Origin: Cyanophora paradoxa CCMP329
Taxonomy: Eukaryota > Plantae > Glaucophyta
Assembly (NCBI GenBank): GCA_004431415.1
Contig: QPMI01000573.1
Span: 1-48,318 of the forward strand
Direction: 5' to 3'
Length of the DNA stretch: 48,318 bases
The notes beneath the pieces are model-generated. The model did not search any database. It was not told the origin of the DNA and saw only the letters and a list, made by a program, of their open reading frames with translations. The position numbers were made by a program, and so were the translations under genes. This document shows, one piece after another, positions 2,338 through 42,243 of the stretch (positions within the stretch are counted from its first letter, which is position 1; each line of letters starts with the position of its first letter).

Positions 2338-2428
2338 ACCATATTGAAAACGAATTTAAATCCCTCGTTCATCTCGATCGCTTCGCGATCTCGATTCCTC
2401 TGGATTTAATTCGTTTTTCAATATGTGT
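2338..2428. repeat. Left terminal fold-back of element 1
   Basis: AC-CATATTGAAAACGAATTTAAATCC (2338-2363) pairs with GGATTTAATTCGTTTTTCAATATGTGT (2402-2428), allowing single-base indels. The 38-nt spacer runs CTCG...CCTCT and contains an inner GATCGC-TTC-GCGATC hairpin. Confidence 0.8.
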
Positions 2429-2739
2429 TAATTTAATACTAAAATACATATTTTTCGATTAATTTCTTAAACTTTTTATGCAAACTTTGTATAAAATATG
2501 CAAACTTTGTATTAAAATGAAAACGCGTTTACCAAAATGCATATTTTCGATTAACTTCGATAGATTCAATTGATCTTATATCGATTGATTATGTACTTTG
2601 TTGTTTACATACAAATCTGCGATAGATTAACATTAAACTGCTTAAAGATCGATATAATTGCGATTAAATTGCATAAATTCGCATAAACTCGATATATCTC
2701 TCATGTATTGAAGTAGACCACCGCCCATTCTGTATCGAA

Positions 2740-2995
2740 AAACGCAAAAGTGTCACAGAGTTGCATTGTGTCCATTGAACAATCGATGAGATTGCTGATG
2801 TACATTTGACGAAAAAGTGTCACAGAGTTGCATTATCTCCCATTAAACATCGATTAGATTGCGGGATTTTCTATTGGAATATATCGGAACTGCATTATGT
2901 CCAATTAACAATCGATGAGATGCGGATTTATATTTTAGATCGAAAAGTGTCACAGAGTTGCATGGTCTCCATTGAACAATCGATTAGATTGCATA
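2740..2995 (+). repeat. Subterminal direct repeats (about 50-65 bp, 3 copies plus a partial)
   Basis: AAAAGTGTCACAGAGTTGCAT...CCATTGAACAATCGAT.AGATTGC recurs at about 2747, 2813 and 2943, with a partial copy at about 2890. Confidence 0.85.
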
Positions 2996-3094
2996 TGTTC
3001 TATAAACAGAATAATTGAATTCAAGTGTGACAGGTAGTATTCAAATGATATTCGTAATAGATATATTGTTTTTGAGAAAGTCAGTAAGAGGGTA

Positions 3095-3560
3095 GAATGT
3101 CTGTGACAGGTGTGACAGGTGTGACAGGTGTTTTCAGAGTCTGTCATTTTGAAAATTTAGAAAGTTTGAAAATAGGTGTCACACTGTCACACCTGTCACA
3201 CTCAATTAAACTACCTGTCACACTGGTTCCTTACCATTTTCAGTAAGACAGAAAGGTATTCATGAATCGACTATTGTTGGGTGGATTTTGAAGGTGTCAC
3301 ACCTGTCACATAGACTGTTTCAGTAAGACAACAATAAATTCTTGAATATTCAGTAAGAATAGAGTCTTTTGTTAATTGGGTGTGACGGGTGTGACAGGTG
3401 TGACAGGTGTTTTCAGAAGTCTGTAATTTGTGAGAATTTTAAAAAGTTTGAAAATAGGTGTCACACCTGTCACAGGCGTCACAGTCATTAAATAGGTGTC
3501 ACACCGATATCTGACCATTTTCAGTAAGACCATCTGAAATTCTGAATTTCTCAGTGTCAA
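3095..3560. repeat. Two tandem iteron-like modules (GTGACAGGT arrays converging on an AT-rich core); candidate origin
   Basis: (GTGACAGGT)3-GTTTTCAG..GTCTG..AAAGTTTGAAAATAGG-(TGTCACACC)n occurs at about 3103-3225 and 3372-3505. Each is followed by CCATTTTCAGTAAG. Confidence 0.8.
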
Positions 3561-3660
3561 CTAACTCGGAAATCGCAATACTCTATGTTTCTCCGATTTC
3601 TCCAACCTGAAAACACACTGTTATTCTCTCATCTATCTCATGAGATACTCTCGTTTCGCC

Positions 3661-3668
3661 AAAATTGA
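3661..3668 (+). promoter_or_regulatory. AAAATTGA motif (Mimiviridae-type early promoter)
   Basis: Exact motif 40 nt upstream of the ATG at 3701. Confidence 0.6.
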
Positions 3669-3700
3669 CAAACGATTTCCCATCATGCTGTAAAGGAAAC

Positions 3701-3952
3701 ATGCCGATTAACCAGCAGTATTACAATTACTATGGGCATTACTTCTTGATTGTCAAGAAACTCCCAGAGCATTATGAGATCTTCCAAGAGATGGGATTGC
3801 GAATTACAGGAGATCAACCCTTTGTAGATTCTTGAAAAGAATGGTGCTAAATGGGATAAGACAATTCGCCAATGTATACAGAAGATCCCAAGAGTCCCTT
3901 ACTTGATATTTTCGAAACAGTGAATTTGGATCAGTTTAATCATTTCCGATAG
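3701..3952 (+). CDS. DUF5710-like small protein (frameshifted)
   Basis: Joining frames gives MPINQQYYNYYGHYFLIVKKL...KNGAKWDKTIRQ(W)YTEDPKSPLLDIF. This has the GA.WD...W(Y) motif and matches the 43342-43803 protein. Confidence 0.6.
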
Positions 3953-4853
3953 CCAGAAACTCCAACTGGAATGAGTTGTCATCCCATTCATATCTACAAG
4001 ATCACCATAATAATCGCGAACTCAACTGTTAACTCTCTAATCACCAGGTTTCGATCGGTTATTTTTATGTATTCACTGTGCTCTCCACTGTGATATACAT
4101 ACTGCCCAATATCTTTACTTAACTGCAATCTGAGAATTGCCCCTTGATTCTGTGGTTGTGATCTTGGGACAATATTGTGGTTTGTAGCAAATGGGAGAGT
4201 TCTTTAATGTGCATGTATAATACTGTTCTGCATTCATGTCTGTCATCTTGGCTGCTTCTAACTTGTAGTTTAAGCGAGATGCCTCGAATTCATATCCTGT
4301 AATGTTATTCCCATTGGGGATGGTTTGGGGTGATTGGTATTCCTGCAAAATAGAGGAAATTCTCGGAGCATATAAAGACCTTGCAGACTCTGGGAATCGT
4401 AGTTCTGCTCTAATGAAGCGACCAGTCAACAGAACTCACCCAAGAAGTTTACCCAATCTCTGTGTAGATGCTACCATCTCGAATTGAACATTACTGTAAA
4501 ACTCTAATTTGTAGGAGGTAGGATTGTAGTAGACCTTGAATGCATATGTGAGATTGTTGCTCCAGTAAATGTGAAATTCAGACCATAATTATATGGACTG
4601 GTGACCCGAAATGCCCTTGATTAATATAACCACTTGGGAGAAGGAAGACCTGCTTGGTTTCAGAGATGCCTTGGTAGTAGAATCTGACAAGAGGTGATCT
4701 GTTCCAATGGAGTTATAGATGCTGTTGGGGATTTCTGCATACAAAACTCGACATTCTCTTGGTTTGGTCACTGGGTTGTGAGTGCAACTTTGTAGGAGTT
4801 TTCTATTTGTCATCTGATCGGTCTCTGCTATCTATATTGACCAGCCGAATCAT
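3936..4853 (-). CDS. Minor capsid (penton, single jelly-roll) protein 1, frameshifted
   Basis: N-terminus MIRLVNIDSRDRS, then YAEIPNSIYN, and C-terminus IRELTVE.RDYYGDLVDMNG..SFQLEF. These motifs are typical of PLV/virophage/NCLDV pentons. Confidence 0.8.
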
Positions 4854-4880
4854 TTTAATATATGTTTATAGATAAAGAAG

Positions 4881-5900
4881 ATGCCTGTGGATTACATCGA
4901 AGTGAGCTCTTTCAATACAATTTCGGGAGATGGACCAACTTCGAGTTTTATTGCTCGCCTCCAAGCACCTATGAATTTGTGAGAGCAGTAAGACTGGTTT
5001 CAGCAGAATTCTATAACAGCATTCCCATGGTGAGTGGTGAAACCAAAGTAGGAGATGTGACAATAGATAATGCAATCTACCTTTATTGGTCTGATATTAT
5101 TCTGGTGCAGGAAGCACTGGTATTCCAACTGATCGACTGCTGCGATTATGAGCAATGGAAGCACATTGTGATAAGTCGCAGCACACCCATTCAAAACACA
5201 ACAATGGTGAATGTAATTAACTCCAAACTTGCATTGAGAGAGCCACAGTAGCAATTCGCTGTAAATGGGATGATACACTGAAACGAGTAATATTCCATTC
5301 CACCATACCGTTTTACCTGGCTTTCTCAACTGCAATAAACCCAACCCAGGCGCAGATTCAGAGGTTTTTGAGTTCTGCTCGACTGCTTGGTCTTGATCCT
5401 GGGAGATATGGTAAACCCAATCCAATCACAAGTTTATAATACTCTGACTGATGGTATCTTTACTGGTCGATGGTGCATGGTATCATATCTTCATTTGAAC
5501 CTGAAAAGACAGGATAGTGTTCTGTTTGTGAGAGTAAAGGAGTTGGGTGATCTGGTTCAATGTGGTGATGGTCTCCTCACGGGATATTTCACAAAATCGT
5601 TGTTCCAGATAAAGATTATGGTGAGCATGTCGTTTATAATTCGACAGAAGCCCATCCGATTTATAAATACTATAACAGAATCTGGACTTTCCACATTTTC
5701 GGTTGATATTGTGAATGCAGTTAATGAACCAATTGATTTCGAGGGTCAACCTGTCCACCTCACCTTCGAAATTCGATATGGTGATGAACCTGCTGGTGAT
5801 CCTGTGTACGATACTTCAAGAGGAGAATGGCGGAACACATCCATCTTATCCGGTTATTGCGAATTTTGCGTAAAATCAAGGATCATTGGTGAATTTTTTA
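4881..5900 (+). CDS. Minor capsid (penton-like) protein 2, frameshifted; 3' end uncertain
   Basis: VRAVRLVSAEFYNSIPMV and LSTFSVDIVNAVNEPIDFEGQPVHLTFEI match the same penton N- and C-terminal motifs. Confidence 0.72.
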
Positions 5901-5927
5901 TGTTGCAGTATAATAAAAGAGATAATC

Positions 5928-7291
5928 ATGGATATTACTTCGACCTCCAACGTCTTTCTCTGAAAGAAGCTCTAACAACCCCGGAAGAAGCCAAGGCGTT
6001 CTTCTTGGACAACTCTCTCATGCTTGGTCTTGAATCCAAGTCGAAGCCAGTTCTTGTTGTTGTGAACCCAAGCAACACTTTCGAGAATAATGCTGGAAAT
6101 CGCATTTCTTTCAAGCTCCCTCGCTACAATTTCTGTGGAAAACTCGAACTTGCGTTTGACCTTCCAGCTGTCACTTTTGCTGGTGATACCGACCTTGTTC
6201 GCAATGGATACGTTCGCCCAGTTGGTGCTCTTGTCTCTCGACTTGAAATTACCTATGGATCTTACACCTTCCATGTGCCTTCTGATTTCCTTGCTCATTT
6301 CCCTCTTATCTATTACAGTGAGGATCAACTCGCCAAGAAGAAGCGTTCAATGGGAATGGTTCATGGTATCCCTGCCATGGAACCAACCGACTTGGTGGGT
6401 CATTTTTCACTGAAATCCCAGTCCATGGCTAAACCACTACCTACCTCTTGGTGCTCTCTCAGGAGAAATGGTGGTAACTGTCTGGTTCAAGGATGCTGGA
6501 AAGGTTATGTGAGACTTCTTATGGTGGTCGTGCTCTTCCTGTTGTTGGTGGAACAGCTGCTGATAAGACAGAGGATGATGGACTTGGTGCTACTGCTAAT
6601 GCTACTCTTGCCCATGTTGGTCAACAAATCACCACTTTTGGAATTGGTGCAACAACAACCCCCGAAATTAAAGTCACTTCTCTCGTCTTTACATGCATGC
6701 TATTAATGTTTCTGATGAACTGTTTGCTACTGTCATTGAGAAGTGAAGACCACTGGTATGGCTATTCCTGCTCTGGATATTGGTTTTGTTGACAGTGTCA
6801 ATTTTGCTGCAAAAGGCAATGCTCAACCAAATCGTATTAACCTGTCACAGATCTCTGGTCTTGTCTATGGTCTTCTTGTTTCAGTTCGTGATGCCGCAGG
6901 TATTGATGGTTTCAATGGTTCCACAGTGTCCTAAAAACGCATGCTAACTCAAAAGACATTACTTTCACTGTTGAAATTAATGGTCAACGTCTCTATGCTA
7001 CTGAGCCATCCCTCTCCTCAAAGGTGCGAATTAATTGCGGATGCCTTCAAGTGCTCAAATATGGACAAGGTTGCAGACAAATATGTCCTCAGTGGTCTAC
7101 CATTCTGTGTTGATGGAGAGAAAGCGATTCGCAACATTGCCCAGTCTGGCTATGTTGATCTCACGAACTCCTCCTCTTCTTTCCTTACTCTATACATGCC
7201 TTCTGACCAGACAATCACAGTTAATGTTCGTGCTCTCATGCACAGTTTCATTATTGTTGACAAAGATGGTCTTCGTCGCATTAATCTGTAA
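5928..7291 (+). CDS. Major capsid protein (double jelly-roll), several frameshifts
   Basis: N-terminal GNRISFKLPRYNFCGKLELAFDLPAV...GALVSRLEITYGS and C-terminal QSGYVDLTNSSSSFLTL...VNVRALMHSFIIVDKDG resemble NCLDV/PLV MCP motifs. About 450 aa, located between the penton and the ATPase. Confidence 0.8.
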
Positions 7292-7352
7292 AACCATTAT
7301 CAGTAACGTTTCGTTATTTTTATCTATCTTAATAAGAAAGATCTACAAAGCC

Positions 7353-8099
7353 ATGTCTGACGTTCCCGAATTTAATGCTGCTGAGATGATTAAACCCCTT
7401 TTCGCGTATTAGCAATCGGAAAAGCGCGACGGGCAAGTCAGAAGCCGTAAAATATTGGCTAAACAACTTCACGATGCGAAAAAGTTAGATGTTGTTCTTG
7501 TTATAAGTGGGACATCATTCAATCATTTTTGGGATGATGTCGCAACATTACAGCTCGGTAAATGGATGCGCCTTACATCGCTAACTTCTCGATGAAAGAC
7601 AAGAGAAAATTGAGAAAGGAGAACCGTTAATCAATTATGTGTTGTTCTCGATGATCTTATAGACAATGAGATTGTAGACCTTACCCGTGATAAAATTATT
7701 GGATCTCTGTATTCGCGCGGCCGCCACTCGGCGATTACAATTTTCTGCATAACTCAGAAACTGCGTAAGGTTTCTTCAACCATTCGCGTCAATTCGGATT
7801 ATGCAATGTTCCTCAGTGCCGCCAATCGCAAAGAACTGGAAGCCATTGAAGAAGAATACAATATCATGCGGGATAAAGACGCTTTCTATAAGATGTTTGA
7901 GGAATACGTTCACTCCTATCAGTTTCTCATTTGGAGTTCTGCGAATTATTCGGTGGAATACTACGTTGATAAAGCGGAACTCGTTAAAGACTTTAAGTTT
8001 CCTCGGTTCCACAGGAAGCCCAAAAAGAAAGAGGACGAATTACCACTCCACAGAAAGAGGAAGCCCCAAAGAGGTCAAGAGTGGTGTTCATTCGAATAA
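7353..8099 (+). CDS. A32-like (FtsK/HerA family) genome packaging ATPase, frameshifted
   Basis: Walker A (AIGK..TGKS across an indel), VLVISGT, Walker B VVLDDL, LYSRGRH, ITQ and IRVNSDY. Confidence 0.9.
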
Positions 8100-8155
8100 A
8101 CTGATGCGATATAAGAGAGGTTTATAAAATAATCTCTGCTTCTAATAAATATACA

Positions 8156-8592
8156 ATGCCTTCCAAACGCAAAGTTGGTGTTGCTGCTGGTGCTATGTCA
8201 TATTCTGCATCCTCTGGAACCGGTTCTATTAACACAGAGCCATGAAATTCAATGGTGTCAATGAAGTTAAAGCATCACAGCAACAAGAAGATCCCTCAAT
8301 GCTGCTTACGAAGAATCACCAGATGATAAGCTCCCAAGCTTCCACAAGTGACCAGTTGAATATTTCGCCCGAAACCTCTAAGATGAAGGCAGTTGGTGAA
8401 GGTGCTCGTCGAATTATTGGTGCTGCTGATGACAAAGGACTGGGTCTCCAAGATCTGTCCCTTGCTCGCAAAGGTGAAGGTGTATCCAAAGAATCAGACA
8501 AGGTAATTCAATCCATGGCTGGTGAGGTAACCTACAAGGTCGCACCTACACAGAATATCCATCGAATTCCAAAGCCCAATGGGACGAAATGA
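8156..8592 (+). CDS. Hypothetical protein (possible virion core protein), frameshifted
   Basis: ATG at 8156 (MPSKRKVGVAAG) joins ORF 8242-8592; lies in the structural cluster. Confidence 0.45.
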
Positions 8593-8936
8593 CTGCGAAA
8601 CTTAAAGATCTGGAAGCGAAATCCAGTGCTCTTGAACAGTATGTCTCTGAGAAGAAAGAGAGAGCGAAATTAAAGGAGATGCTGCGAAAGGAGGTGTATA
8701 GAATGGGAATCACTGGTCTCCCAGATAAGCAGTTCATTGGTAAGAAAGAGACTCAAATTGATGAGCAGGCAGTTGATGAGATGAAGACCAAAACCAGAAG
8801 GGCACCATTGAACCTGGTGCTACCAAATCAGAGGTCGATAAAGGTGTTGCCCCAACAGTATATAAACGACGAGTTTGGCTTTAATTATCTCGCATTAAGA
8901 GAGAGAGCATCATGGATTTCTTGCGAAAACTCATAG
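8589..8936 (+). CDS. Hypothetical charged/coiled-coil protein
   Basis: 115-aa ORF with an ATGA overlap on the upstream ORF. Confidence 0.5.
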   Translation: MTAKLKDLEAKSSALEQYVSEKKERAKLKEMLRKEVYRMGITGLPDKQFIGKKETQIDEQAVDEMKTKTRRAPLNLVLPNQRSIKVLPQQYINDEFGFNYLALRERASWISCENS

Positions 8937-9145
8937 AGATGTTCAATCTCCACATTGTGAGCAATTGTCACAGTGGCTGCTGTGAAACCAAAGTCGAAAT
9001 CGAATTCTCTGACACTGAGAGTCATGGATCTGGTGGTAGGCGATTATCCACAGATTCGGTGGATTTCGAAGAGCATATTAAAACAGAGACAGTGAGGCGC
9101 AGGTCTGTATCTTTCACAGATCCGAAATTAAATCTCGGTAATTAA
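8912..9145 (+). CDS. Hypothetical small protein with a CxSxCC motif
   Basis: 77-aa ORF MDFLRKL...NCHSGCC. Confidence 0.45.
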   Translation: MDFLRKLIEMFNLHIVSNCHSGCCETKVEIEFSDTESHGSGGRRLSTDSVDFEEHIKTETVRRRSVSFTDPKLNLGN

Positions 9146-9344
9146 TATCGAATGCTCAGTCTCTCTGAGATCTATGCTATCCTTGAAAGGAAATCCGCTG
9201 AATATGCAACAGAAGCCGCAATAAAAAAGCGTAGACAGGAACTGGTCTCGATCTGCAAAAAATGACAAGGGATTTAAGGGTAAGGTGTGTTTGATTGGTG
9301 AACCGGACAAATTATTTCTCGTCCCATTATAAGGAACATATCAA

Positions 9345-9597
9345 ATGGAAACTGAATCTGTGGTCGAATTCGAACTTGCAATGAGCGAGGTGGATCCAAT
9401 GAGAGGAAAGGTTGTATGACCGCTTGTATTTCCAGAAACGCTATCAAGATGAGGAATTTCGAGAATTATATCGTAAAAAGGCACTGGAACGATATTATCG
9501 CAGGAAAGCTGCTGAGATGGATCCAATAATCAGTGAAACGCCCAGTAGGTCGTCCCAGAAAATACTGAACCGCCCCAAAGTCCCAGATATCCGCTGA
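9345..9597 (+). CDS. Basic helical protein with AT-hook, frameshifted
   Basis: YFQKRYQDEEFRELYRKKALERYYRRK, plus VKRPVGRPRKY* in the adjacent frame. Counterpart of 46905-47396. Confidence 0.6.
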
Positions 9598-9760
9598 ATC
9601 CTTTTTGTTACCATGATCAATCGACTTTTCGATGGATCATTACCATACATCGAGCGCCAATCGGAGAACCCAAAGGTATTTAAAGGTTAGGCGCCAAAAA
9701 ATGACAAGCGACCGGAGAAATTAATTTCTCCATTAAGGATAAGAAGCCCCGATTGTTGAA

Positions 9761-12119
9761 ATGAACGCTGCGCCAAGAAATCCCTGAAACGCCTTGTTGA
9801 ATGGCTTCGTGAAGACGATGTCCTGTCTGAGAATATCGTTATTCCTGTTGATCCTGATACCAAAAAGCCACTTTTCGCTCATAAAGACGGAACCTGGTCT
9901 TGGGATAAATTCGATGAAGCCCTGAAATCCGGTAAATATACTGCTTGGGGCATTCTCGCTCGTAATATCCTGGTAATTGACTTCGACCAAGAGGAGGATT
10001 TCGCCAAATTCGAGGAGCAATTCCCTGATGATTTCGGTGGTGTTAATCCTCTTGCTAAAACCAAAAAAGGATATCATGCATTCTTCGCTCGACCTGCTGA
10101 ATTCGACACCATTAAGATCTGGGATAAAGCGGGTGCATTCAAAGGAAACCCAAGATCGACTGCAAAACGATTGCATCCACTGGGACTGCTGGGGTGATTA
10201 ATGTTTGCCCCAGTCCCAACAAAACATGGATCAGAGAGCCATGGGCATCTGAGTGTGAGTTAAATGAACCCACTGCTGAGTTGCAAAAGTGGATTGTTGA
10301 AAACTACGAATTCCCCAAAGGTGCACATTCTTATTATGCAAGGTGCGCTGAGGAGAATTTGCAGAAACATATTCTTTCTAAACTCGAAGAATTCGGTTTC
10401 ATCTTGCCCACAATCATCAATGAGACCAAGATGGGATACAATTTCACTGCTGAGAACAAAGGTCTGGTCTGTCCCTGCTGCAAGGGAAGCCATGACTCAA
10501 ACAATTGGTATATTATTCAAGGGAAGGAGAAAGACAAGTACATTGTTTCGAGTTACAGTGCAAACTGCAAGAAGCGAAGCATCACTGTTCGTGTGAAGGA
10601 AGAGACAGATGTGAAGATCGAAATCTGATTGATCGGTCTGCTGGATCTGATGGTGCCCATTATGATGTTGCACAGGTTGCCTATCTTGTTCTGCAAGACA
10701 AATACAAGTATTCCAACAAGACCTGGTTCAAGTTCAATGATATATGTGGGATTTGGGAGTTGGATGAAACTGGGAAGCGAATCTTTCTCTGTTTGAGCTG
10801 CAAGGTCTGTCCAGTTTATCTTCAACGTTCTGTTCAACTCGCACAGAGAGCTCTTCGTGATGAAGAGAACCGCAATTCCTTGGAGGAAAGGTCAAAGATT
10901 CTGCTGGGAATTGCTAAGAGCCTCAAACAGACTACATACAGAACTGCACTTATGTCTGATCTTTCAGTTCTGTTCAGTGACAAGACCTTTTTCGAGAGAC
11001 TTGATACTGTTCCCAACATCATAGGATTCACAAATGGTGTATTTGACTTGAACTCCATGACTTTTCGACAGGGACTCCCAGATGATATGGTGAGCAAGAC
11101 TGTTGGCTACGATTATACCACAGAAATCGACCAAGAGAAGGTTGCAAAGATTAAGTCCATCTATGCAGATATTATTGAATCGGATACAGACCGCGAATTT
11201 ATGTTGGGATTAATCGCCTATGCCCTGAGTGGTTTGACAGAAAATCAGAGATACACTTGTTGGACTGGAATTGGAGCAAATGGGAAATCTCTGCTCCAAG
11301 AGTTGGTGAAAGACACATTTGGTGAATACTATGGGTCACTGGATATGACCTATTGGACGAAACCCAAGAAGAGTTCATCAGAGGCTTCCCCAGAACTCGC
11401 TTGCATCCTTGGTAAACGAATTGTTTTCAGTAATGAAGCAGAAGATGGTGATATGCTTCAACTGAACAAAATCAAACAAGTTACTGGTGGGAATGAGATG
11501 AAGGTTCGAACTCTATTCAAAGATCTTGTAACATTCATTCCATGTTCCAGTTGTTCTTGTCTACAAATGACAATCTGGGAATCAGTAAACCAGATGCAGC
11601 AATCCAAAGGCGAATTATCTACTACCGATTCGAAAATGTCTTCAAGGTGGAACCTCAACCTGGTGAGAAGAAGGCAGACACCACTCTCATGCGCCTCATG
11701 AAGAATGATGATGATTATAAAATGGCGCATATGTCCATTCTCCTGGAAATGTGGAGAACCCATTCTCTCAATACATTCGTCACCAAACCTCCCAGTCCAT
11801 TGTTGATCAAGGTATGGAGTATTTCAATGAGAATGACAAGATTGGAGAGTGGATTCGAGAGAATTATGAACTCACCAAGAGTCAAGGCGATTTCACTACA
11901 AGTGAGTCCATCATGAGTGACTTCAAGAGAGACCACATGGGCAAATCTGATGAGAAAATCTCAGATTGCACCATTATGAAGAGACTTCGCGAAGTCTTTA
12001 ATGTGAAGTCTGACAGAAAACGAGTGAATGGTGTACTTTGCCGTGGTTACTTTGGGATCATAAAGAAGCATGGTCGCAGATTGATGGATGACAGTGATGA
12101 GGAGGTTGGGGATGAGTAA
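9761..12119 (+). CDS. Primase-helicase: Prim-Pol domain + Zn finger + D5_N + SF3 helicase + C-terminal wHTH (frameshifted)
   Basis: Prim-Pol motifs VIPV...KKP, GIL...LVIDFD and TKKGYHAFF (9780-10100); CPCCKGSH; D5_N IGFTNGVFDL; Walker A GIGANGKS; Walker B VFSNE; IKQVTGG; LSTND; AIQRRI; C-terminal RVNGVLCRGYFGI. Confidence 0.9.
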
Positions 12120-12139
12120 ATAAAACGGAATCAATACTT

Positions 12140-12332
12140 ATACTGTGAATTTCTAATTTTTTAAAACCTTACTGTAAATGGTTTGTGTGACAGGTGTGAC
12201 AGGTATTTTAATTGACTGTGACGGGTGTGACAGGTGTGACAGGTGTTTTCAGGAGTCTGAGGATTTTTAAAAAGTTTAAAAAGTTTGAAAATAGGTGTCA
12301 CACCTGTCACACCCGTCACACCCAATTAACCA
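12140..12332. repeat. Third GTGAC iteron module, directly after the helicase gene; candidate origin
   Basis: Five GTGAC(A/G)GGT units, an AT-rich core TTTTAAAAAGTTTAAAAAGTTTGAAAATAGG, then three inverted TGTCACACC units. Confidence 0.8.
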
Positions 12333-12472
12333 CAGACTCCCCCCTGTGGGTCGATCACTTTTCCGAAGAATAATCGAAGGATATCAAAACGTATCGGAAA
12401 TCGGTGTGTTGTGACAAAAATTGACTGGCGATTTAAGGGATCGTTGCGTGTTTCACTTGACTAAGACAGAAA

Positions 12473-12664
12473 ATGGATTATTTCGATGAAATTCGGCGGC
12501 AGCTTGTCGAAAAGAATGATATTGCAGAGGTGGCGGATTATATTGCAAAGATCAAAGCAATTAACGGTAGACCCTATCAAAAGAAGCGTGTTTATGCAAG
12601 CAGACTCGACACAGTAAATGTATATGTCCCCAAAGGCACGAATGTGCGAATTATCAGAACCTGA
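12473..12664 (+). CDS. Hypothetical 63-aa protein
   Basis: Clean ORF preceded by AAAATTGA at 12417-12424. Confidence 0.55.
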   Translation: MDYFDEIRRQLVEKNDIAEVADYIAKIKAINGRPYQKKRVYASRLDTVNVYVPKGTNVRIIRT

Positions 12665-12720
12665 AAAATGGGAAATGCGTTTAAAATGCCCAAAAATAAT
12701 ATGTTCCCTTAAAGTAAAAG

Positions 12721-15700
12721 ATGCCCCGCCAATCCAATAGAATCATCAAAGAGAAGAAAAACGAAATACTCGGTCTTTTAGGAACCCTTTTAGTTACTGG
12801 TGATATTACAGAATTCGAATATGATCGCCAGGCAGCAATCTTGGATAGGAGACCAAGGTTATCTCAACTCACAGAAATTACAAATCGCCTCTATGATCGT
12901 TTTGAGAAAATGGAGGAATTCAGGGATGAAGGTTTAAGGTTGGGAACAATTGAACCCGAGATTGAGGATGGGGAAGCAATGAACAAAGCATATTCTTGGT
13001 TAACCTATCGAGCAAGAGGGGAGGTTATCCAAGATGGGATTGAATTCTTGGAGAGAATTGCACCCACTCTACCTCAGAGACTCAGACAGAAACTCCAAGA
13101 CCTGAGAGCAATTAAGACTCGGTTGACCTTCATTTGTAAATTCACCAAAGTGAGTGATCCAAGGGTGTGGATCACCAAATTCATTTACAGTGATTACTTT
13201 GTCATCACAAGATCACGAAATATTGATGTTGAACTGCGAAATGCCCTTCAATCCATGCAGGAGCAGATGATGCAAGTTGACAGTTACAGACTGGATCGCA
13301 TTGAGATGCTCAGAGTAGTAATAATGTCCTATGCTCCTGTGGGTGGTTGCTTCTTCTCAACACCTGAGTGGATTGGATTAAAGAGAGCAACTGTGAATGT
13401 GAAGAATATTGATGGTCAAGACTGCTTCAAGTATGCAATCTTGGCTTACCTGCACCGAAATGATATTAATAAACACAAGAGCAATGAACCCAGCCAGTAT
13501 AGAAGATGGTTGAACGAACTCAATTTCGAGGGCATCCAATTTCCAGTTGCCTGTGATGCAGAGGTGATTGATCGATTTGAGGAGCAGAACCCTGAACTGA
13601 GTATCAACATTTATGGGGCAGATAATACTGCACAGTGTTTCTATCCTCTCCACCAATCCAGCAACCCCAGGAGAAAGACCAAGATTAACCTTTTATTAAT
13701 CGAAAACGAAGAGGATGATAGAGGGCATTATATCACCATCATGTCTCTGAGTAGACTTCTGAAAACCACCTTTGATAAAGCCCATGATGGTCGCATTTAT
13801 TACTGTGAGACCTGTCTGTCTCGTTTCAGAACTCAGGAGAAGCTGGATGTACATATAGAAGCGAATCGCTGCATTGATTGGAGGGAGAGCAAAGGTAAAT
13901 GCCCGAAATCTGGAAGTCACATTGCATTTGGTCTGCAACACCTTCGCAAAACTGTGTGGCTTCCCGCTATCTGCTATGTGAAAATGGATAGTCACTCGGT
14001 TCCAATTGATGAGAACCGCAGTAAGAGAGAGGTAAAATCGGTTTCTCTAACAGTTGTGATGGGGGATGAGGTGATCTCTCATTATTTTGATGGATCAGAT
14101 CCCCTTGGTGCTCTGTTTACCACTCTCACAGAGATCAGACCCCAAGTAATTCGCACTCTATTCACCAATATTCCCATGCATCCACTCACAGAGGAGCAGA
14201 AAGCACAATACAAGATCACTAAACACTGTTATATCTGTGCTGAACGATTTACCCATGAGAATTTCCCAGTGAGAGACCATTGTCATCAATCAGGAGCTTT
14301 TATTGGAAAAGCATGCCGAAACTGCAACCTCCACAGGAGAATCTCAAAGCAAACGAAAGTAGCAATTGTGGTGGATCACATGGATGAATGTGGACACGAA
14401 ATATTCCGCAAAATTGCACAGCAAGATGATAAACTTCGTGTTGAGATCCTGAGCAAGAATTTCGATCAATACCTCTCTCTGCAATGGGGCATGTGGAAAT
14501 TCATAGATGCTTCGCACTTCATGGACTTCCAGGCAGTGGATGCAAGTGATCTAATGGGTAAATTCCAGAAATTCCGAGAATTGGCGTTTTCCCAATATGG
14601 ATTAGATCCTGCCCATTATGTTTCGGCTCCTGGATTGTCCTGGGATGCAATGCTAATTTACACCAGAGCAAAGATCGAGCAGATCAGTGATGTAGGGCAA
14701 TACGAATTTATTGAGAGGGCAATTCGAGGTGGGTTTGCTACAATGCCTACTCGATATGCAAAGGTGGAAAACCCAGATGACCATATAGTTCTCTTGGATG
14801 CAAATAATCTGTATGGTTATGCTCTCATTCAAGAACTGCCCATTGGAGATTTTCGTTGGGAAGATGTCACAGAGGCACTTAAAGAGACCCAAGGACGAAG
14901 TGCCTTTATTGAAGTTGACCTGGAATACCCACAAACTCTCACAGATCATTACGATTTTCCACTTGTAGTTAATAAAGAACATGTCACCACCGAAATGCTG
15001 GGTGGGTATCAACAAAAACTACTGGATATCACAGGTGAGAAGATAAGCAAAGACCCCAAACTCACAGCAACATTCTCGCCCAAAAACAACTATGTGATTT
15101 CCCAACCTCTCTTGATCTATCTTGTGAGCAAAGGTATTATAATCACGAAGGTTCACAGGGTTCTCTCATTTGCAACCTCTGCATTTATGAAGAGTTATAT
15201 TGATCTAAATACGAAACTGAGGCGCCAATCTATGTCCAGATTCGAGAGTGACTTCTTTAAATTAATGAACAATGCAATCTATGGTAAATGCCTCGAATCA
15301 TGCAGGGGTCGCTCTGTGGTTAAGATTGCTAACAGTGAGAAACTCTGCAAGAAATATGCTGCAAGTCCACTCATCAAGGCAACCAATGTATTAAACGAAA
15401 AAGCTGTTGCCTTTGAGATGTACTCAAAGCATGTTCACTTAGATAAACCTGTTGCAATTGGTGCTTTTGTGCTGGATTTCGCGAAACTCCATAATAGCAG
15501 GTTCTTTTATGATGTGGTGAGGAGAACTTGGGAAACAGCAGAGCTACTATTCCATGATACAGATTCTTTCTGTCTACTGCTGCATACAAATGATCTAAAT
15601 AATGAGATGAAGCGAATTTCTGAACACCTGGATTGCAGTAATTATGATACTGCCCACCCTCTCTATGATAGGAGAAATCGCTTGATTCCAGGTAAATATA

Positions 15701-16002
15701 AAAACGAGTTTCCCAATGCAAAGATTGTGGAGTATGTAGGTCTGAGATCGAAACTCTATGCTTTCAGAACTGAGACCTTTGATAAAATAAAAATGTCTGG
15801 GACTTCCTCCAAAGAGGTTCACTTTGATGATTTCAAAAGATGCTTGTTTGAAGGAATCACCAAAACAGTAGCAGTAGTAAACAAGCGAAGACAAGACCAC
15901 AACCTATATGATTTGGAGAGCAGAAGGGTGGCTCTAAACCAACTCGATAGCAAAAGGAAGATATTAGACGATGGAATTCACAGCATTCCATTTGGGCTCT
16001 AA
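12721..16002 (+). CDS. polB: Protein-primed family B DNA polymerase (Polinton/Maverick type)
   Basis: Motif A LLDANNLYG, motif B FKLMNNAIYGK and motif C FHDTDS; GLDPAHYVSAPGLSWDAML; EndoVII-like insert CYIC...RDHCH..G...ACRNCN; OTU-like DCF...GHY; a C2H2-like finger. Confidence 0.97.
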   Translation: MPRQSNRIIKEKKNEILGLLGTLLVTGDITEFEYDRQAAILDRRPRLSQLTEITNRLYDRFEKMEEFRDEGLRLGTIEPEIEDGEAMNKAYSWLTYRARGEVIQDGIEFLERIAPTLPQRLRQKLQDLRAIKTRLTFICKFTKVSDPRVWITKFIYSDYFVITRSRNIDVELRNALQSMQEQMMQVDSYRLDRIEMLRVVIMSYAPVGGCFFSTPEWIGLKRATVNVKNIDGQDCFKYAILAYLHRNDINKHKSNEPSQYRRWLNELNFEGIQFPVACDAEVIDRFEEQNPELSINIYGADNTAQCFYPLHQSSNPRRKTKINLLLIENEEDDRGHYITIMSLSRLLKTTFDKAHDGRIYYCETCLSRFRTQEKLDVHIEANRCIDWRESKGKCPKSGSHIAFGLQHLRKTVWLPAICYVKMDSHSVPIDENRSKREVKSVSLTVVMGDEVISHYFDGSDPLGALFTTLTEIRPQVIRTLFTNIPMHPLTEEQKAQYKITKHCYICAERFTHENFPVRDHCHQSGAFIGKACRNCNLHRRISKQTKVAIVVDHMDECGHEIFRKIAQQDDKLRVEILSKNFDQYLSLQWGMWKFIDASHFMDFQAVDASDLMGKFQKFRELAFSQYGLDPAHYVSAPGLSWDAMLIYTRAKIEQISDVGQYEFIERAIRGGFATMPTRYAKVENPDDHIVLLDANNLYGYALIQELPIGDFRWEDVTEALKETQGRSAFIEVDLEYPQTLTDHYDFPLVVNKEHVTTEMLGGYQQKLLDITGEKISKDPKLTATFSPKNNYVISQPLLIYLVSKGIIITKVHRVLSFATSAFMKSYIDLNTKLRRQSMSRFESDFFKLMNNAIYGKCLESCRGRSVVKIANSEKLCKKYAASPLIKATNVLNEKAVAFEMYSKHVHLDKPVAIGAFVLDFAKLHNSRFFYDVVRRTWETAELLFHDTDSFCLLLHTNDLNNEMKRISEHLDCSNYDTAHPLYDRRNRLIPGKYKNEFPNAKIVEYVGLRSKLYAFRTETFDKIKMSGTSSKEVHFDDFKRCLFEGITKTVAVVNKRRQDHNLYDLESRRVALNQLDSKRKILDDGIHSIPFGL

Positions 16003-16185
16003 TCTACTTCATCAATCTTTCTTTTTCTTTGGTTTCGCTCTCCAAGAAGTAACAAACCGCGAATTAAATGCAGCAGCCATATACATCTTAATCCTGGATC
16101 ATTGGGCTCAATTGCAAAGTAGTTGGGAATTGTGTTCTCCTTCCACACAGAGTCTTGCATTTATTATATGAGAGATAAGGTAAAG

Positions 16186-17234
16186 ATGCCTTCTACACAA
16201 ATAGGATTGAGACAACCACCCAGAATTGTTAGAAAAGAAGCAATTGAAGATCGAGGGAATATTCTGCCCATCACAGTTCCAGTGGAGGAGAAGAGCAGTC
16301 GAATATTAAAAAGATCAGAGATGGTCAAGCAATTAATTCCAGAGACCCTCCCAGCTGAGACAGCACCAAAAGAGTCGAAGATTGCTAAGAAGTTCTATGA
16401 TCCCAGAACAGGTTACAAGGGATTTACTGCAATGAGACAGGAACTACCAGAGGAGAACTACAAGAAAATGAGAGAATGGTATGATAAGCAGGAGGTTGTC
16501 CAAATTAATGCACCTACCCTATCTCGAAAGAGAGATCCCATGATTCCAATTAGGCAACCCCTTGATACATATGTGATTGATCTGCTCTTCTTTCCTGCAT
16601 ACAAAAAGCAGAATGATGGTTATGATACATTTATGAGTGCAATGGAATCAACCCTAAGAACTGGGTTCATCATTCCAATGAGAGACAAGAGTGCTCTTAC
16701 TACACTTGCAGCATTCAAGCAACTTGAACAGAGAGTCCCCAGACCAATTGTTCGCATTCAGAGTGATAGTGGAAGCGAATTTACCAATGTCTTATTCACA
16801 GATTATCTGGGAACCAAATTCATTGAGCATCAACTAAGTGATGTTGCAGATCACAGAACCCAAGGTCGGATTGAAGCCTTTAACAGACAGATCAAGAGAT
16901 TAATCACAAACTACTGCATTGCAAATAATACTGCACGATTTTTGATGTGTTGGGTGATATTGAGTATAATTATAATAATACCATTCACTCTGCAACCAAG
17001 AGAAAACCAGCAGAGACCACAGAAGCCCACTACAAAGAGATTGTGAATATGGAGGATCAGAGATTCAAGAAATCGATTGAGTATCTTGATGCTCTGAAAC
17101 CTGGAATGTTTGTGAGAGTGAAAGTTGAAAAGAACCCATTTGCAAAGCAGGGAGTTAATTGGTCTCGAATTGTTTATAGTGTGGAGGGCAGAGAGGGCTT
17201 CAAGTTCAGAATCAGAAGTCCAGTGGTGAGATAG
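16186..17234 (+). CDS. int: Retroviral-like (rve) DDE integrase; frameshift at about 16940; C-terminus may extend to about 17420-17570
   Basis: FYDPRTGYKG, YVIDLL (D), IQSDSGSEF (D), GRIEAFNRQIK (E), YNNTIHSATKRKP and LKPGMFVRV...NWS, as in Polinton integrases. Confidence 0.93.
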
Positions 17235-17603
17235 TTGATGGTAGATTCGCTTTTCATGAACTGCTGCCATTAAAGCGTTGAGTATCATGAAACTCCACAG
17301 TGGATGCTCTTGAACAGGCAAAGGAGGAAGCCAGGGTTGATTCAGCAATCAGAAAGGAGGGCATAGAAAAGCAAGTGAGTACCAAAGAACCCTTACAGAA
17401 GCAGAGCACAAGAAGGTAGAGTAGAGAAAGAATTAAGAAGTTGACCATAGCAGAACCAGAATTATCAGAAGTTAACAGTCAGAGATGTATAATGACTTTT
17501 CAACCACCAGGAAACATACTGCACCCAACTCGATTCAATCTACGAAGTGGCAGAGGAAATAGATTAAACGCTTTCGAATCTCTTAGACCTCTGGCGATTT
17601 TTC

Positions 17604-25931: not shown

Positions 25932-25950
25932 TTTCTACAAGTAGTTTAGA

Positions 25951-27947: not shown

Positions 27948-27969
27948 GAATATTGGTTATATATAGAGT

Positions 27970-28242: not shown

Positions 28243-28265
28243 TTAATTTTTCTAAGGTATTCTTA

Positions 28266-28663
28266 ATGGAGACTAAATACAGAGGCTTTCATGTTATGCT
28301 TGATTACAAGGCTAAATCAGCTATAGCAACAGGTTATGAGCATGTTAGCTTCCTAGGTAATTGGATTATGGGAACCCTTGAACAAGCAGTATTGAGACAA
28401 GGTATTAGGATTGTTCATAAGCATTGTGAGATATTTGATGGCAAACTATCACCTCTGGTTTTGCATTGGTTCTGCTATTAGATGAAAGCCATTGCACAGC
28501 TCATTGTTATTCCAATGAAGGCATGTTAGCAATTGATATATTCAGTTGTGGTAAAGAAGCTCAGCATAAAACACAAGCAGTTGCAGATGAGATCGATAAA
28601 ACAATGAATTTCTTAACATTTGAGAAGACTGAGAGACATAAACATGATAGATTCCCGTTTTGA
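28266..28663 (+). CDS. speD: Prokaryote-type S-adenosylmethionine decarboxylase-like proenzyme (frameshift at about 28460)
   Basis: GFHVMLD, LLDESH (pyruvoyl self-cleavage E/SH), HCY and AIDIFSCG. Confidence 0.85.
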
Positions 28664-29060
28664 TGGGTTTCTATAATGATAAACAGGGTAATTTACCTTT
28701 TTATTACAATGGCAATCGTTAAAAAAGGATATAATATATCCTTTCCTACAATAGCTTTCTACAATGATTTTCTTTCTACAGTAGCTTTTGTTACAATAGA
28801 ATTCTACTGTATGATGTAGCCGAAATATGAATGCACCCTACATTAAGCAATGTCAAGTATTTCGAATACTATTCGATTTCCTTACAATAACACTCAGCAT
28901 CTCCCCTTGATTCCCCCTATTATATTATATTTATATTTAAGTGGACGATATCGATATCGATATAACATCGATTAAATTAATTGAAAATGCATATAAAAAT
29001 ATGAAAATTCAGGTGAAAATTCAAATAAATTAATCGATTTTATTGATATAACATCGAATC

Positions 29061-29133
29061 ACACATATGAATATTCATATTTTAATCCTGAGGCGGAACG
29101 CCGAGGGATTAAAATATGAATATTCATATGTGT
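29061..29133. repeat. Right terminal fold-back of element 1
   Basis: Perfect 28-bp inverted repeat ACACATATGAATATTCATATTTTAATCC (29061-29088 / 29106-29133), with a 17-nt spacer containing GGCG-GAA-CGCC. Confidence 0.95.
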
Positions 29134-29749
29134 CGCAATCCCAAGTTCTTCGAGAGCCTTGAAACAAAATCGTTCGAATTACACAGCTCTCTCGTCAAGC
29201 ACTGCTCCACGTGCACCAGCACTGAAGACGAGAAGCATATGTTGGTGTCGCATGCAGGTAAAAACAATTGCACGTTAATCAACACATGAATTAATTGAAT
29301 TTATACGCAGGGTTTCTATTTGCTGTTCCCTCCTATGCAGCACGTACACTACCCGGAATCTCGATAAATATAGCCAGTGAACAGCGCGAAGCTTACAGAC
29401 GTTATATCTTTCCAATAGACTATTACCATCCAGACTTAAGCATTTCCTTGCCTCCCCACAGATCTAGATCTATAGCCAGGATAGCTATAGCTAGCAGCAG
29501 ATCAGGTACATATGCACACAGATATGTACGTGCATATGTAAGGGGATCCGGAGGGAAGGCTCCCAGAAAGAGCTTAGTGACCGCACTTGGAAGGCTGCTG
29601 CCCCGTAAACGCTAGCCATGTTGTTTTGCTGATCACGATCAAAGTGAAGCTGCAACTCTGAAGGCAATCGCAATTGGCGGCTGGGTGGTCGGCTCTAAAA
29701 AACTTGCGATCCGGATCGGAGCTTCGAATTTGCGTGGTCATGGTCAGAT

Positions 29750-38255: not shown

Positions 38256-38657
38256 TAGGGTTGCCGTGTCCATGCCACTCCATGGACATGTCAGTCAACC
38301 CGGTGGACATGGACATTCGGACACGGACATGCCCGCCGACATGTCCGCGGACATTGAATATTTAATTAAATTAAATTATATAATATTAAATGCCAAAAGC
38401 TTAAGTGAGGCGGCGGGGCAGCTTTGGCGAGGTTCCCGCTGCCCTCCGCCTCTTTCCAAGCATCAGAGACGTGTTGCTAACTTTAGCAGTGTTCTGCTAA
38501 CGTGTTTAGAGCACGTTTAGCACGCGTTTCAGCCGGTTTCGAGGGGTATCCCCCCTAATGTCCACGGACATGTCCACCCGGACCCACGGACATTGACATG
38601 ACATGTCCGCGGACATGGACATGTCAATGTCCGCGGACATCGGACACGGCAACCCTA
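38256..38657. mobile_element. hAT-type MITE (402 bp)
   Basis: 16-bp TIR TAGGGTTGCCGTGTCC / GGACACGGCAACCCTA; 8-bp TSD GTCGGGGC (38248-38255, 38658-38665); subterminal GGACA(T) repeats at both ends. Confidence 0.92.
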
Positions 38658-38789
38658 GTCGGGGCCCCAGCTGCAGCAGACGGTACTACGGACTCTCTAG
38701 TACGGAGTCTACGGTACTACGGTATATGGTACGTGTATATGGTACTTTGATGCGCAGCGCCGCATGCGCAGACTCCGGCTCCGGCACTG

Positions 38790-39320
38790 ACCGGCAGTGC
38801 CGGGGCCGCGGCCGCCAACTCGCGATCGGCGCCAACTAACGCCGCCAAGTTAACTTAGTACTAAGTTAGTACTACTTAGTAGTAGTAACTAGTAAGTTGC
38901 GGCGCCGGCGCCAACTTCGAGTCACTGAGAGTCAAGTCCCGGTCCGGATCCCTCACTGAGTCAATTCACATGCAATGCAAACCGCGTGACGGTGAGCCGG
39001 CCCGGCGGGTCAGGTGATCGACTTCCGGCAGTGCCGCGGCGCCGGCCCGGGCCGCGGCCGCCAAGTTGCCGAAGTTGCGCCAACTTGCAACTTGGCAACT
39101 CGGCGCCAAGTTAACTTAGTACTACGGTACTAAGTTAGTAGTAGTAAGTTACTAGTAACTTAGTAAGTTGCGGCGCCGGCGCCAACTTCCGAAGTTCGAG
39201 TCAAGTCCCGGTCCGGACTCCGGACTCCGGACTCCGGGATCCCTCACTGAGTCAATTGCAATGCAAACCGCGTGACGGTGAGCCGGCCCGCCGGGCCGGC
39301 GGTCAGGTGATCGACTTCCG
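38790..39320 (+). repeat. Imperfect tandem duplication (about 240-290 bp)
   Basis: GGCAGTGCC...CCAAGTTAACTTAGTACTA...GAGTCAAGTCCCGGTCCGGA...GGTCAGGTGATCGACTTCC occurs twice. Confidence 0.8.
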
Positions 39321-41960
39321 TAACGTAACGGTAAGTTTCGTGCTGTACCAGCCTGTATATACGTACCGTAACGTACGTATACGTATACTCAGTATATGTA
39401 TATACCGTCATGATCACTACCGTAAAACACAATAAATGACGGTCAAATTTATGTCGTTTTAAAACCCGACCCTTCTCTATGCGAAACATGATGTCCCCGT
39501 CGTTATATATGCATATGTCGTTATCTCCCGTCCGAGGCGAAATAATTTGGGGATGACATAATAAAGCTTTTTAAGTGCGTACCTTCATATTCTGTTTTAC
39601 GGTATATTACCGTAGTACCGTGTACGGTGTTATCATAGTATATTACTTCCAGACTAAAATAATACCAGTTACCAAGTTACGGTTACCGTATACCGTATAC
39701 GTAGTTCACGTGCCGAGTCGTGCGAATACACGCAGAAAGCACATGATATTACAGAATAGCCTAGTAGAGGTAGGCAAGCCTGTATTTGATGAATTTGTTT
39801 GGCCCGCGACCGTCGGACATGCGCTAGCCTAGTAGAAATGAGAAGCTAGTTTACGTCAAGCTTAATTATAAGAGGCCGCCTCTCCCCCCCTCGGCTCGAG
39901 CCCTGGCTGGCCGGCTCGACCTAGCTCGCCCCCTGGCTCGAGCCAGCCGCTGAGCCCTCCCCTCCGAGGCTCTCCGAATATTTCCGATGTGACACGTGCA
40001 CTGTACATGTGACAGCCTACCGCAGCCGAGGTCCGCAAGTAAGTTAATGAGGCTGTGGCCGGATTCACCAACAAAAAAACGTTTAATGCGACGTCGACAT
40101 GAAGAAATTAATTACATAATGCGGTTATATATATTAATTAGCTCGACCCGGACGGTGGCCGGACCCCGGCCGCGAAATGGCCCTAATTGTGACATTGCAA
40201 TTGATGCGGCACAAAATTATATAAAAAATGCGTTTTGAAGCTTTTCGCATAGCGTATACCGTATACCGTATACGTACGTAGGTAGTAGACTACTAGTACT
40301 AGTAGTTCGGAAGCTGCAGCTGGGCCCTCGGGGGGTACAAACAGTAGTTTATGAGCGTTTTGAAAGCAATATTTTAATTAAGTATTATACTATGATACAA
40401 AATTAAGCTACTGGGCTATCGATCGCGACGATATCTAGATCTGGGCTTGCGAAGACGTGAGTCACGTCACGATATCTCAGAGTCTGGGCTTGCGAAGTCA
40501 CGTACGCGTGGCGTCGTCAATTGCAAGCGCCGCGCCGCGGCACGGCGCGGCGCCGCGGCGGGCCGGCGGCCCGGCGGCGTTCTAGCATGGAATGTGGAGA
40601 CTTGCAATCGAGCTCGATTCCACGAACAGTCACCAAGGCGATGAACTCAAAATTTTGACGCGGTTGCAAAAAATTGCCTATGTAACCGCGCGTCACTGCG
40701 GCGTCAGGACTCAGGAGTCAGGACCCCATGGCCAGGGGCCCAATTGCAACGACCGAAGCGACCAAGTGCCAAAAAAATGATCATCGGATGTCATGGGCCT
40801 CATCATCGGCCCTCATGGCCCCTTCGGTCGTTAACAAGTGTCAATTTCAATTTCAATTTGTCCATTCATGCATCGCGTTAATTCGCTACCGATTCATGCA
40901 TCGCATTTATATATTTTACCGGTCTCGCGACCGATACTGGAAGTCGGGTAATATTTAAGACGCCTTCGAATCCCGCCCGGCCCGTTTCAGAATCTCATTC
41001 GATCATGCCCTACGTATACTGTGCCGTCACGTCTCGCACGTCTAGGGGAGAGACGTAGACCCACACCGCGTACAACAGTGTACGGACCTGCGATGCACTC
41101 GACTGTAGGCCAGCCCGAGTCCCAGGCAGCCCGTAGCTATGAGATTGCAAGCCGCAGTGCTAGTATTAATTACAGCTGCTACGTAAGCCCAAGTTACTTA
41201 GTTAACGCTGTACCAAGCTCGATTAATTGGTAATCACAAGTCTGCCCGAGTCCACTAGACTCTGACTATTTACGGGGCTAAGCCACCGCGTGCCACGTCG
41301 GCTCAGGCCCTGGCCACGTCGGCTCGGGCCCTTCAGCGCCACGTCGGCTCGGGCCCTTGAGCGCCGCCGTGCACGTGTCGGGCCGGGGGCCCCTCCGGGA
41401 CCGGGTACGCCGCGCCCGGCGGCCGGCACCCCTCGAGGCCCGCGGCGGGTACGCCCCCACGTTGATCGCGAACTCGCGATCGCGCCCGCACATTCGCCGC
41501 AGCACAAGAAAGCCGTCCTCGGCGTCCATCCCGCGACGTTCGCCGCAGCAAATCGAAAGTCCCCGAATATTTACATATCCACAATTCAGAAGGGTGAGCT
41601 GCCGAACAACGACATCGACCGGCTCCGTCCCTTCGCAACTCGCAGTTGACGTCGGCCCCGCAGCCGCCGCTGCCCTCGACGTCTTGCGAGTCTGGCCCCT
41701 CCGGCCTGCGGCTGGATCTGTAGACGGCGAGAAAAGAGGAGTCCTGTGCTGCAGAACGCGGACGCCGCCGCGACGAGCACTTCCAAAATTTCCGCTCTTG
41801 TTCTCAAATCCGCCTGACGAGATTCTCCGCCCATTTTCGACCCCAGAATAAAATTAGCGGCCGGACGCACAGCTAAATTGACGGTTGCTGTGGGTCCGCC
41901 GGCGGTAGGTGCACTTGCACATCGAGTCCGAAGACCGAGAATGTCCGCCGAGGTTGCTCA

Positions 41961-42243
41961 ACACATAGTAAAATGCGGAGTTTTAACCCTCGGCTTATCT
42001 TAATTGATTTTGTTGATATATCTCGTATATTCTATTTCAATCAATCGATAATCTGTGTATATCTTATCGAATAGTCATTTATTTCGATTATTTTGTATTC
42101 TTTTCGATATTTTATCGTAAATTTCTCTTATTTTCCGATTAGTCTTACTGAGTCTATCGATAATCTGTATATATTTCCGAATATTATAACTGAATCTCAA
42201 TTAGATCTTGCCTCTGGTTAAAACTCCGCATTTTACTATGTGT
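41961..42243. repeat. Terminal fold-back of element 2
   Basis: Perfect 28-bp IR ACACATAGTAAAATGCGGAGTTTTAACC (41961-41988 / 42216-42243), with a 227-nt spacer bounded by CTCG...CCTCT. Confidence 0.95.

Follow-up and report, generated by a model that had tools for sequence, protein, structure and literature searches.

What forms the outermost end of a Polinton-like virus that has integrated into the genome of its host, and how might such an end be copied? The question is raised by a stretch of 48,318 nucleotides (nt) from the glaucophyte Cyanophora paradoxa CCMP329 (contig QPMI01000573.1 of assembly GCA_004431415.1), hereafter called the window, which carries two low-GC elements. The first, V1, is a Polinton-like virus (PLV) of 26.8 kb (2338..29133) with about 40% GC, compared with 50-62% in most host bins. 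The second, V2 (41961..48318), runs off the window. Both ends of V1 and the visible end of V2 carry self-complementary fold-backs, which we call E1 (V1 left end), E2 (V1 right end) and E3 (V2 end). Our analysis indicates that each fold-back is the outermost part of an integrated Polinton-like element, and that it probably corresponds to the opened-out hairpin end of a free linear viral DNA. A previous interpretation made from the letters alone (the sequence-only reading) had spoken of three virus ends. All three are indeed located at element-host junctions, but we describe V2 as virus-like rather than as a proven virus because no capsid gene is present in its visible 6.4 kb.

The E2 fold-back consists of an inner arm (29061..29088, plus strand), a 17-nt spacer (29089..29105, minus strand) and an outer arm (29106..29133, minus strand) whose final base, 29133, is the exact host junction. 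E3 begins with an outer arm (41961..41988, plus strand), where GC content falls from 0.60 to 0.30, and continues through a 227-nt spacer (41989..42215, plus strand) to an inner arm (42216..42243, minus strand) that is followed by GATT. The arms of E2 and E3 are each perfectly complementary over 28 bp, and of the 35 short-range inverted repeats listed for the window, none has longer perfect arms. At E1, the outer arm on the host side (2338..2363, plus strand) is 26 nt as assembled, the spacer (2364..2401, plus strand) is 38 nt, and the inner arm (2402..2428, minus strand), which precedes TAATT, is 27 nt as assembled. When aligned, the E1 arms pair with three 1-nt gaps and no mismatches. These gaps are probably assembly errors because the window is indel-rich in this region, where a 338-nt short-read contig over 2041-2362 takes 16 gaps. 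The coordinates, arms and spacer lengths are as the sequence-only reading had given them.

Folding z-scores are -6.3 for E1, -14.2 for E2 and -8.8 for E3, and none of 200 shuffled sequences was equally stable at any of the ends. In the E3 region (41901-42900), the 28-bp inverted repeat compares with a maximum of 13 bp in 60 shuffles. A half-site pattern of the arm, which misses the E1 arms owing to their indels, has four exact matches and one match with a single mismatch in the window, where 0.06 would be expected. The one-mismatch match (23564-23591) is located within a fibre gene.

The three ends share a common design. Each arm has conserved blocks of 7 bp and 8 bp that are separated by a fixed spacing of 13 bp. 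As the sequence-only reading had noted, at all three ends the outer arm is followed by CTCG, and the inner arm lies between CCTC(T/A) and (G/T)A(A)TT. In the E2 and E3 folds, CTCG lies opposite CCTC(T/A), giving a 3x3 internal loop of pyrimidines with G-C closing pairs, and E1 carries the same letters at the blocks that form this bubble. Beyond the bubble, E2 has a 4-bp GC stem, E1 has an inner 6-bp stem, and both are closed by a TTC loop, whereas the longer E3 spacer folds to an imperfect stem whose long, AT-rich loop contains a 13-nt direct repeat. On the host-to-virus strand the spacers are 63-74% pyrimidine, with E1 at 74%.

Natural covariation is seen when E2 is compared with E3. Nine of the 28 arm positions differ between these ends, and all nine differences are compensated in both, such that complementarity is kept within each end, as had been claimed. 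The accompanying claim that the 13-nt cores are unrelated does not hold. Their pairwise identities are 6/13, 7/13 and 6/13, and four of the 13 columns, read by eye, are identical across all three ends, which is suggestive of diverged homologues.

One alternative is that the integrase or a terminal protein binds the arms as a pair of sites, and that the arms have no role as hairpins, their complementarity being kept by gene conversion or arising as a by-product. The conserved blocks with their fixed spacing do resemble a bipartite protein site, and protein-primed family B DNA polymerases (pPolB) and DDE integrases are thought, in the available literature, to act on the same end sequence. However, binding would be expected to keep the letters rather than the pairing, and here the variable positions are fully compensated. 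Moreover, the spacer extends the structure as an imperfect stem-loop. The compensated pairing is better explained by fold-back copying than by simple paired binding sites, and we consider the binding-site explanation rather improbable. A reading of the arm as a RAG/Transib-like heptamer-spacer-nonamer signal was rejected, since no such transposase was seen and the pairing would be left unexplained.

The position of the fold-backs relative to host DNA was established with short-read contigs rather than raw reads. Twenty of the 21 listed runs, all under one organism code, contain part of 2001-11900. The window itself may derive from one of these runs, and contig depths are rough guides rather than copy numbers. 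On the left of V1, a low-depth, single-copy host contig stops where the E1 outer arm ends (2362-2363) in four of four runs. The E1 junction is present in contigs of 2012, 2019 and 2024 runs, and V1 body contigs are 8-28 times deeper than the left flank in the three runs compared. On the right, V1 is inserted in a host repeat (29134..29220, plus strand) with about 8-12 copies. Empty copies of this repeat resume at 29134/29135 (one run), and thus the right junction is the last base of the E2 outer arm. In addition, one contig (29013-29086) joins 48 nt of the interior to the E2 inner arm at a depth of 7670, which is 30-44 times that of the single-copy flank. The presence of the inner arm on a multi-copy contig with viral interior, together with the exact junction, indicates that the fold-back belongs to the mobile unit. 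The outer edge of the fold-back is the integration point, and V1-type elements form a multi-copy family.

These junctions also bear on the possibility that the arm-spacer-arm cassette is an independent element, similar to a miniature inverted-repeat transposable element, and that such cassettes border the viruses, which would be composite units. The overall shape, with spacers from 17 to 227 nt, would suit this explanation, as would a contig that joins at least 255 nt of unrelated DNA to an E2-type hairpin exactly at its apical loop (29098). This join might equally be an insertion, a half-hairpin end or a variant with a longer loop. Within the 48-kb window, however, exact half-sites are found at element borders only, and the inner arm, with the conserved (G/T)A(A)TT after it, shares a high-depth contig with viral interior. 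There is also no consistent target duplication of the cassette. Near-repeats that flank the cassettes (a partial 7-nt repeat at E2 and a 9-nt repeat at E3) were considered as target duplications and dismissed because their lengths differ and none is present at E1. Overall, a composite of this kind is quite improbable.

It might also be argued that the fold-backs are assembly artefacts or one-off products of repair through fold-back synthesis at breaks. The indel-rich character of the window, with 16 gaps in a single 338-nt contig, lends this idea some credence, and a preprint on Halocafeteria viruses (bioRxiv 10.64898/2026.07.28.741278) also offers accidental annealing as an explanation in its available text. 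Against it stand three ends with one design and one arm length, an E1 junction that recurs in contigs from three different years, and the multi-copy E2 inner arm. This explanation is largely refuted and we regard it as very improbable indeed.

From the observed junction position, pairing and bubble, we infer the following model of cutting, of the enzyme involved and of priming. When the DNA is free, its terminal 28-bp duplex would have the two arms as strands and the imperfectly paired loop as a cap. The rve integrase would probably nick one strand at the stem base, between TATGTGT and the conserved (G/T)A(A)TT, and the freed 3' end would be joined to host DNA. Unfolding and fill-in would then yield the order host-arm-loop-arm'-virus. 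Upon release, the same 3' end would fold back and prime synthesis, so that one arm is recopied from the other in each cycle. Such recopying would allow the cores to drift while pairing is kept, and because it occurs within an end, pairing between the left and right ends (a panhandle) would not be needed. Bulk replication would likely depend on a Prim-Pol/D5 module and its repeat arrays, on a proofreading-dead pPolB, or on both, and an endonuclease VII-like domain is a candidate resolver of palindromic junctions.

The genes for these putative activities are present in V1. The pPolB is encoded by an open frame of 1093 amino acids (12721..16002, plus strand) that includes polymerase motifs and the endonuclease VII-like domain. 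Its best matches are 32-38% identical, and those with names are mollusc proteins. Compared with 12 aligned relatives, the polymerase motifs are kept, the first two exonuclease motifs are lost, and an in-frame gap of about 110 residues covers the third exonuclease motif, where the names given to these motifs are those we take to apply. Thus, the enzyme is predicted to lack proofreading. The rve (DDE) integrase (16168..17234, plus strand) has one frameshift in the assembly and matches PF00665 at E=0.001, which is below the cut-off, and it has 235 relatives at E<=1e-10. One of these is 72% identical and all others are at most 39% identical. What are presumably its acidic motifs are kept and are common to the 72% identical relative. 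The identities of the polymerase and the integrase mark the V1 lineage as divergent.

Frameshifted pieces of the Prim-Pol and D5-type helicase lie at 9760..12119 (plus strand), with a match to PF09250 below the cut-off and one to PF08706 at E=3.4e-10. Two arrays of GGTGTGACA repeats, the first in inverted arrangement (3100..3530) and the second directly 3' of the helicase gene (12168..12340), bracket the capsid and primase-helicase genes. V2 has arrays of GGTTACG, likewise in inverted arrangement (43026-43270, 43918-44210 and 45470-45790). The GGTGTGACA arrays of V1 and the GGTTACG arrays of V2 are candidate origins for D5-type primase-helicases.

Several observations weigh against the hairpin-end model. 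The data are contigs only, with no free viral DNA, raw reads or fold-back reads among them, and the evidence for covariation comes from just three ends. All three spacers share one orientation, whereas simple hairpin transfer predicts both isomers. No flipped spacer was found in the contigs, which resolve isomers poorly, and there are no letter differences in the E2 spacer among the 8 of 138 contig pieces listed. Some parvovirus ends do occur in one form only, according to the accessible text of a published account (PMC8242256). Cutting of a hairpin by a DDE integrase at a distance of 28 bp from the loop is a putative activity. V1 has a full-length pPolB, whereas the available text of the Halocafeteria preprint ties palindromic ends mainly to elements that lack this polymerase. 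No HUH nickase was found by Pfam in the 27 plus 10 scanned frames, which are a subset of all frames. The proposal of fold-back copying, which the sequence-only reading had put forward, is favoured by the nine compensated differences and by the junction position, but its analogy to parvoviruses lacks the nickase. Finally, no relative with such an end was recovered in pattern scans of IMG/VR, JGI metagenomes or GTDB.

Those scans produced matches that we attribute to chance. In IMG/VR, one pattern gave 14 loci with a best score of 10/19, another gave one locus at 17/29, and a third gave 29 loci with a best score of 13/28. JGI metagenomes yielded two loci at 15/28, and GTDB yielded 18 loci with a best score of 18/27. 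None has a complementary partner arm. Protein-based locus searches of IMG/VR with the capsid frame, D5, the integrase alignment and the last fibre-like gene likewise recovered no relative, and none of eight window proteins is present in an exact-match protein collection.

Does one element normally bear two different ends? The chances appear about even. The sequence-only reading had suggested an analogy to heterotelomeric ends, but this is not established, since the V1 junctions come from different host sites and both end regions have about twice the depth of the body. The first ~1.5 kb of V1 does not align with its last ~1.5 kb over more than 30 nt, and as assembled V1 has no terminal inverted repeat (TIR). 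A target duplication was also not found, with no 4-8 bp repeat at offsets 0-3, and the two flanks are not partners. Because DNA upstream of the right-hand empty site does not match the V1 left flank and no such duplication is present, the two junctions derive from different events. Recombination, mis-joining and deletion of adjacent DNA are the candidates, and two copies may have recombined to give V1.

These facts can be accommodated if the fold-backs are hairpin tips of ordinary two-ended TIRs, with one type for each family, and if two families were recombined or mis-assembled to give V1. In that case the private core would be specific to a family rather than to an end. We give this explanation a little less than an even chance. 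It is compatible with the hairpin mechanism, and it competes with the heterotelomeric claim only. The unmatched flanks are in its favour, as are the depths, since the contig at 3617 has 2.12-2.17 times the depth of the deepest body contig (three of three runs compared) and the E2 contig has 2.01 times that depth in run X5. Doubled depth at the ends fits either two families with ordinary two-ended repeats or left and right ends that are shared by several subfamilies. The latter would account for the near equality of the two end depths (0.95) and for the known subfamilies, which when summed already reach 76-78% of the left-end depth. Repeat types also shift along V1, from GGTGTGACA arrays on the left to GGTTGCG and TACARTAG motifs from 18.2 kb, and the E2 interior resembles the E3 interior (0/100 shuffles as high) and not clearly that of E1 (4-16/100). 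Furthermore, elements of mosaic or tandem structure are frequent among these viruses, as judged from the available text of another preprint (bioRxiv 10.64898/2026.10.13.758929). On the other hand, the gene set of V1 is single, coherent and non-redundant, and recombination or mis-joining within the same family accounts equally for the mismatched flanks.

The stronger version of the hairpin-end model, which we regard as doubtful, is a lineage that has neither matched terminal repeats nor protein priming. In such a lineage, each end would carry an independent self-priming hairpin of private sequence whose orientation is fixed by the asymmetric bubble, and the integrase would serve as the terminal nickase, opening the hairpin for integration at 28 bp from the loop.

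Two features of V1 might be considered alongside this question. A non-coding region (17900-18860) has 11-bp and 12-bp tandem repeats, with motifs common to V2 and to the sub-terminal regions of E2 and E3, and is a possible module boundary. Over 4876-8341, short-read contigs reveal at least two further diverged subfamilies of the V1 structural region and a low-depth, diverged copy of the capsid gene.

The remaining gene content was assessed by a Pfam scan of 27 of the 61 listed frames and then of 10 more in this frameshifted assembly. The major capsid protein gene (5996..7291, plus strand) is frameshifted, and its extent was taken from reading frames. The N-terminal part of the protein resembles Nucleocytoviricota Capsid_N by language-model features (score 0.98), a lead only given its low recognition value. 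The capsid frame has no Pfam match, and a search with a capsid fragment gave no longer homologue. A fragment of an A32-like packaging ATPase (7614..8099, plus strand) matches PF04665 at E=2.7e-5. A patatin plus F5/8 gene and six to seven fibre-like genes occupy 18899..27947, some with PTR, C1q and H-lectin matches. No maturation protease was detected in the 27 frames scanned initially, a subset of the 61.

Near the right end of V1, an S-adenosylmethionine decarboxylase gene is split in two frames (28239-28663; PF02675 E=1.2e-9 for the second piece), and a small zinc-finger-like frame (27967-28242) adjoins it. The window contains 11 copies of AAAATTGA, counted without a chance control, of which 10 are within the two elements (2320, 3661, 6798, 7606, 12417, 17834, 26727, 43829, 44846, 46811 and 47361). 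This sequence is described as an early promoter motif of giant viruses in the accessible part of a published study (PMC11788076).

V2 encodes RING proteins, a DUF5710 protein and a frame similar to the D5 C-terminal domain (E=3e-7). Frameshifted frames at the window edge (47462-48318) include a primase-like motif that may be of the archaeo-eukaryotic type, with no Pfam match. Between the two elements, a 170-bp satellite (29766-35906) begins 630 bp from the V1 right end and comprises 35.6 copies with 89% matches and hints of higher-order structure. A further host region (38255-39300) with nested inverted repeats and short palindromes resembles a separate non-autonomous transposon.

How do these ends compare with those of known systems? 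The sequence-only reading held that no such architecture was known in Polintons or PLVs. That statement is outdated, given that the available text of the Halocafeteria seosinensis preprint (bioRxiv 10.64898/2026.07.28.741278) describes terminal palindromes in virophage subtypes 1, 2, 5 and 6 as well as in PLV subtype 4, and proposes hairpin priming. As in V1, the palindrome is outermost at the host junction of an rve-integrated small DNA virus, and fold-back priming is a proposal in both systems. However, the Halocafeteria palindromes, which in subtype 5 measure 52 nt, are located inside TIRs beside target duplications, mostly in elements with replicases other than pPolB. The ends described here have loops of 17-227 nt and a conserved bubble, and V1 as assembled shows neither TIR nor duplication and carries a proofreading-dead pPolB, as predicted, beside Prim-Pol/D5. 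The new features are thus the long loops, the bubble, the natural covariation and the apparent loss of proofreading in pPolB.

Polintons/Mavericks and TIR-flanked PLVs share with V1 a pPolB, an rve integrase, an A32 ATPase, a jelly-roll capsid (here a lead only) and multi-copy, low-GC insertions (PMC12220804, PMC12747079). In the available text of the same papers, canonical Polintons have TIRs of hundreds of bp and target duplications of 5-6 bp, whereas V1 as assembled has no TIR. The terms 'palindrom' and 'hairpin' occur 0 times each in the main text of PMC12220804 as available. The literature covered, which is sparse in subscription papers and excludes preprint supplements that may list looped or unequal ends, includes no Polinton or PLV ends that are long-looped, bubble-bearing or unequal.

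Parvoviruses are single-stranded DNA viruses with an HUH nickase. Their heterotelomeric ends resemble those described here in having terminal hairpins, a mismatched bubble and, for some ends, a single orientation (PMC8242256, in its accessible text). In contrast, no HUH nickase was found in the scanned frames, and different ends on one element are only a candidate feature.

The hairpin termini of poxviruses, asfarviruses and chloroviruses likewise have an imperfect, strand-asymmetric loop on a perfectly paired stem, but the accessible accounts describe large, free genomes with long TIRs and flip-flop isomers (PMC11814242, PMC11788076), whereas the present ends have been opened out and connect to the host. 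Giant endogenous viruses of Ectocarpus, which have a telRL-like site, offer another likeness as integrated DNA viruses inferred to be hairpin-ended when free (PMC13236599, available text). These viruses integrate by means of a tyrosine recombinase that acts via attP and cleave an internal palindrome with a telomere resolvase, whereas the fold-backs described here are themselves the integration ends.

End copying and integration are unexplained in most Polinton-like viruses, and the idea of hairpin priming rests on one preprint. To this problem, E1-E3 contribute natural covariation, a conserved bubble and a candidate site of cutting that is exactly placed. Ends with loops of 17-227 nt would escape the published Halocafeteria palindrome search, whose gap limit, according to the available text, is 10 nt. 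If the two ends of an element differ, TIR-based detection would miss them too, and elements scored as lacking TIRs may be complete. Should V1's left and right ends be genuinely different, the panhandle model that is standard for Polinton replication would be inapplicable to its lineage. If the ends are indeed unequal, self-priming hairpins with the integrase as nickase, the V1 lineage would have a parvovirus-like, heterotelomeric design built from Polinton parts.

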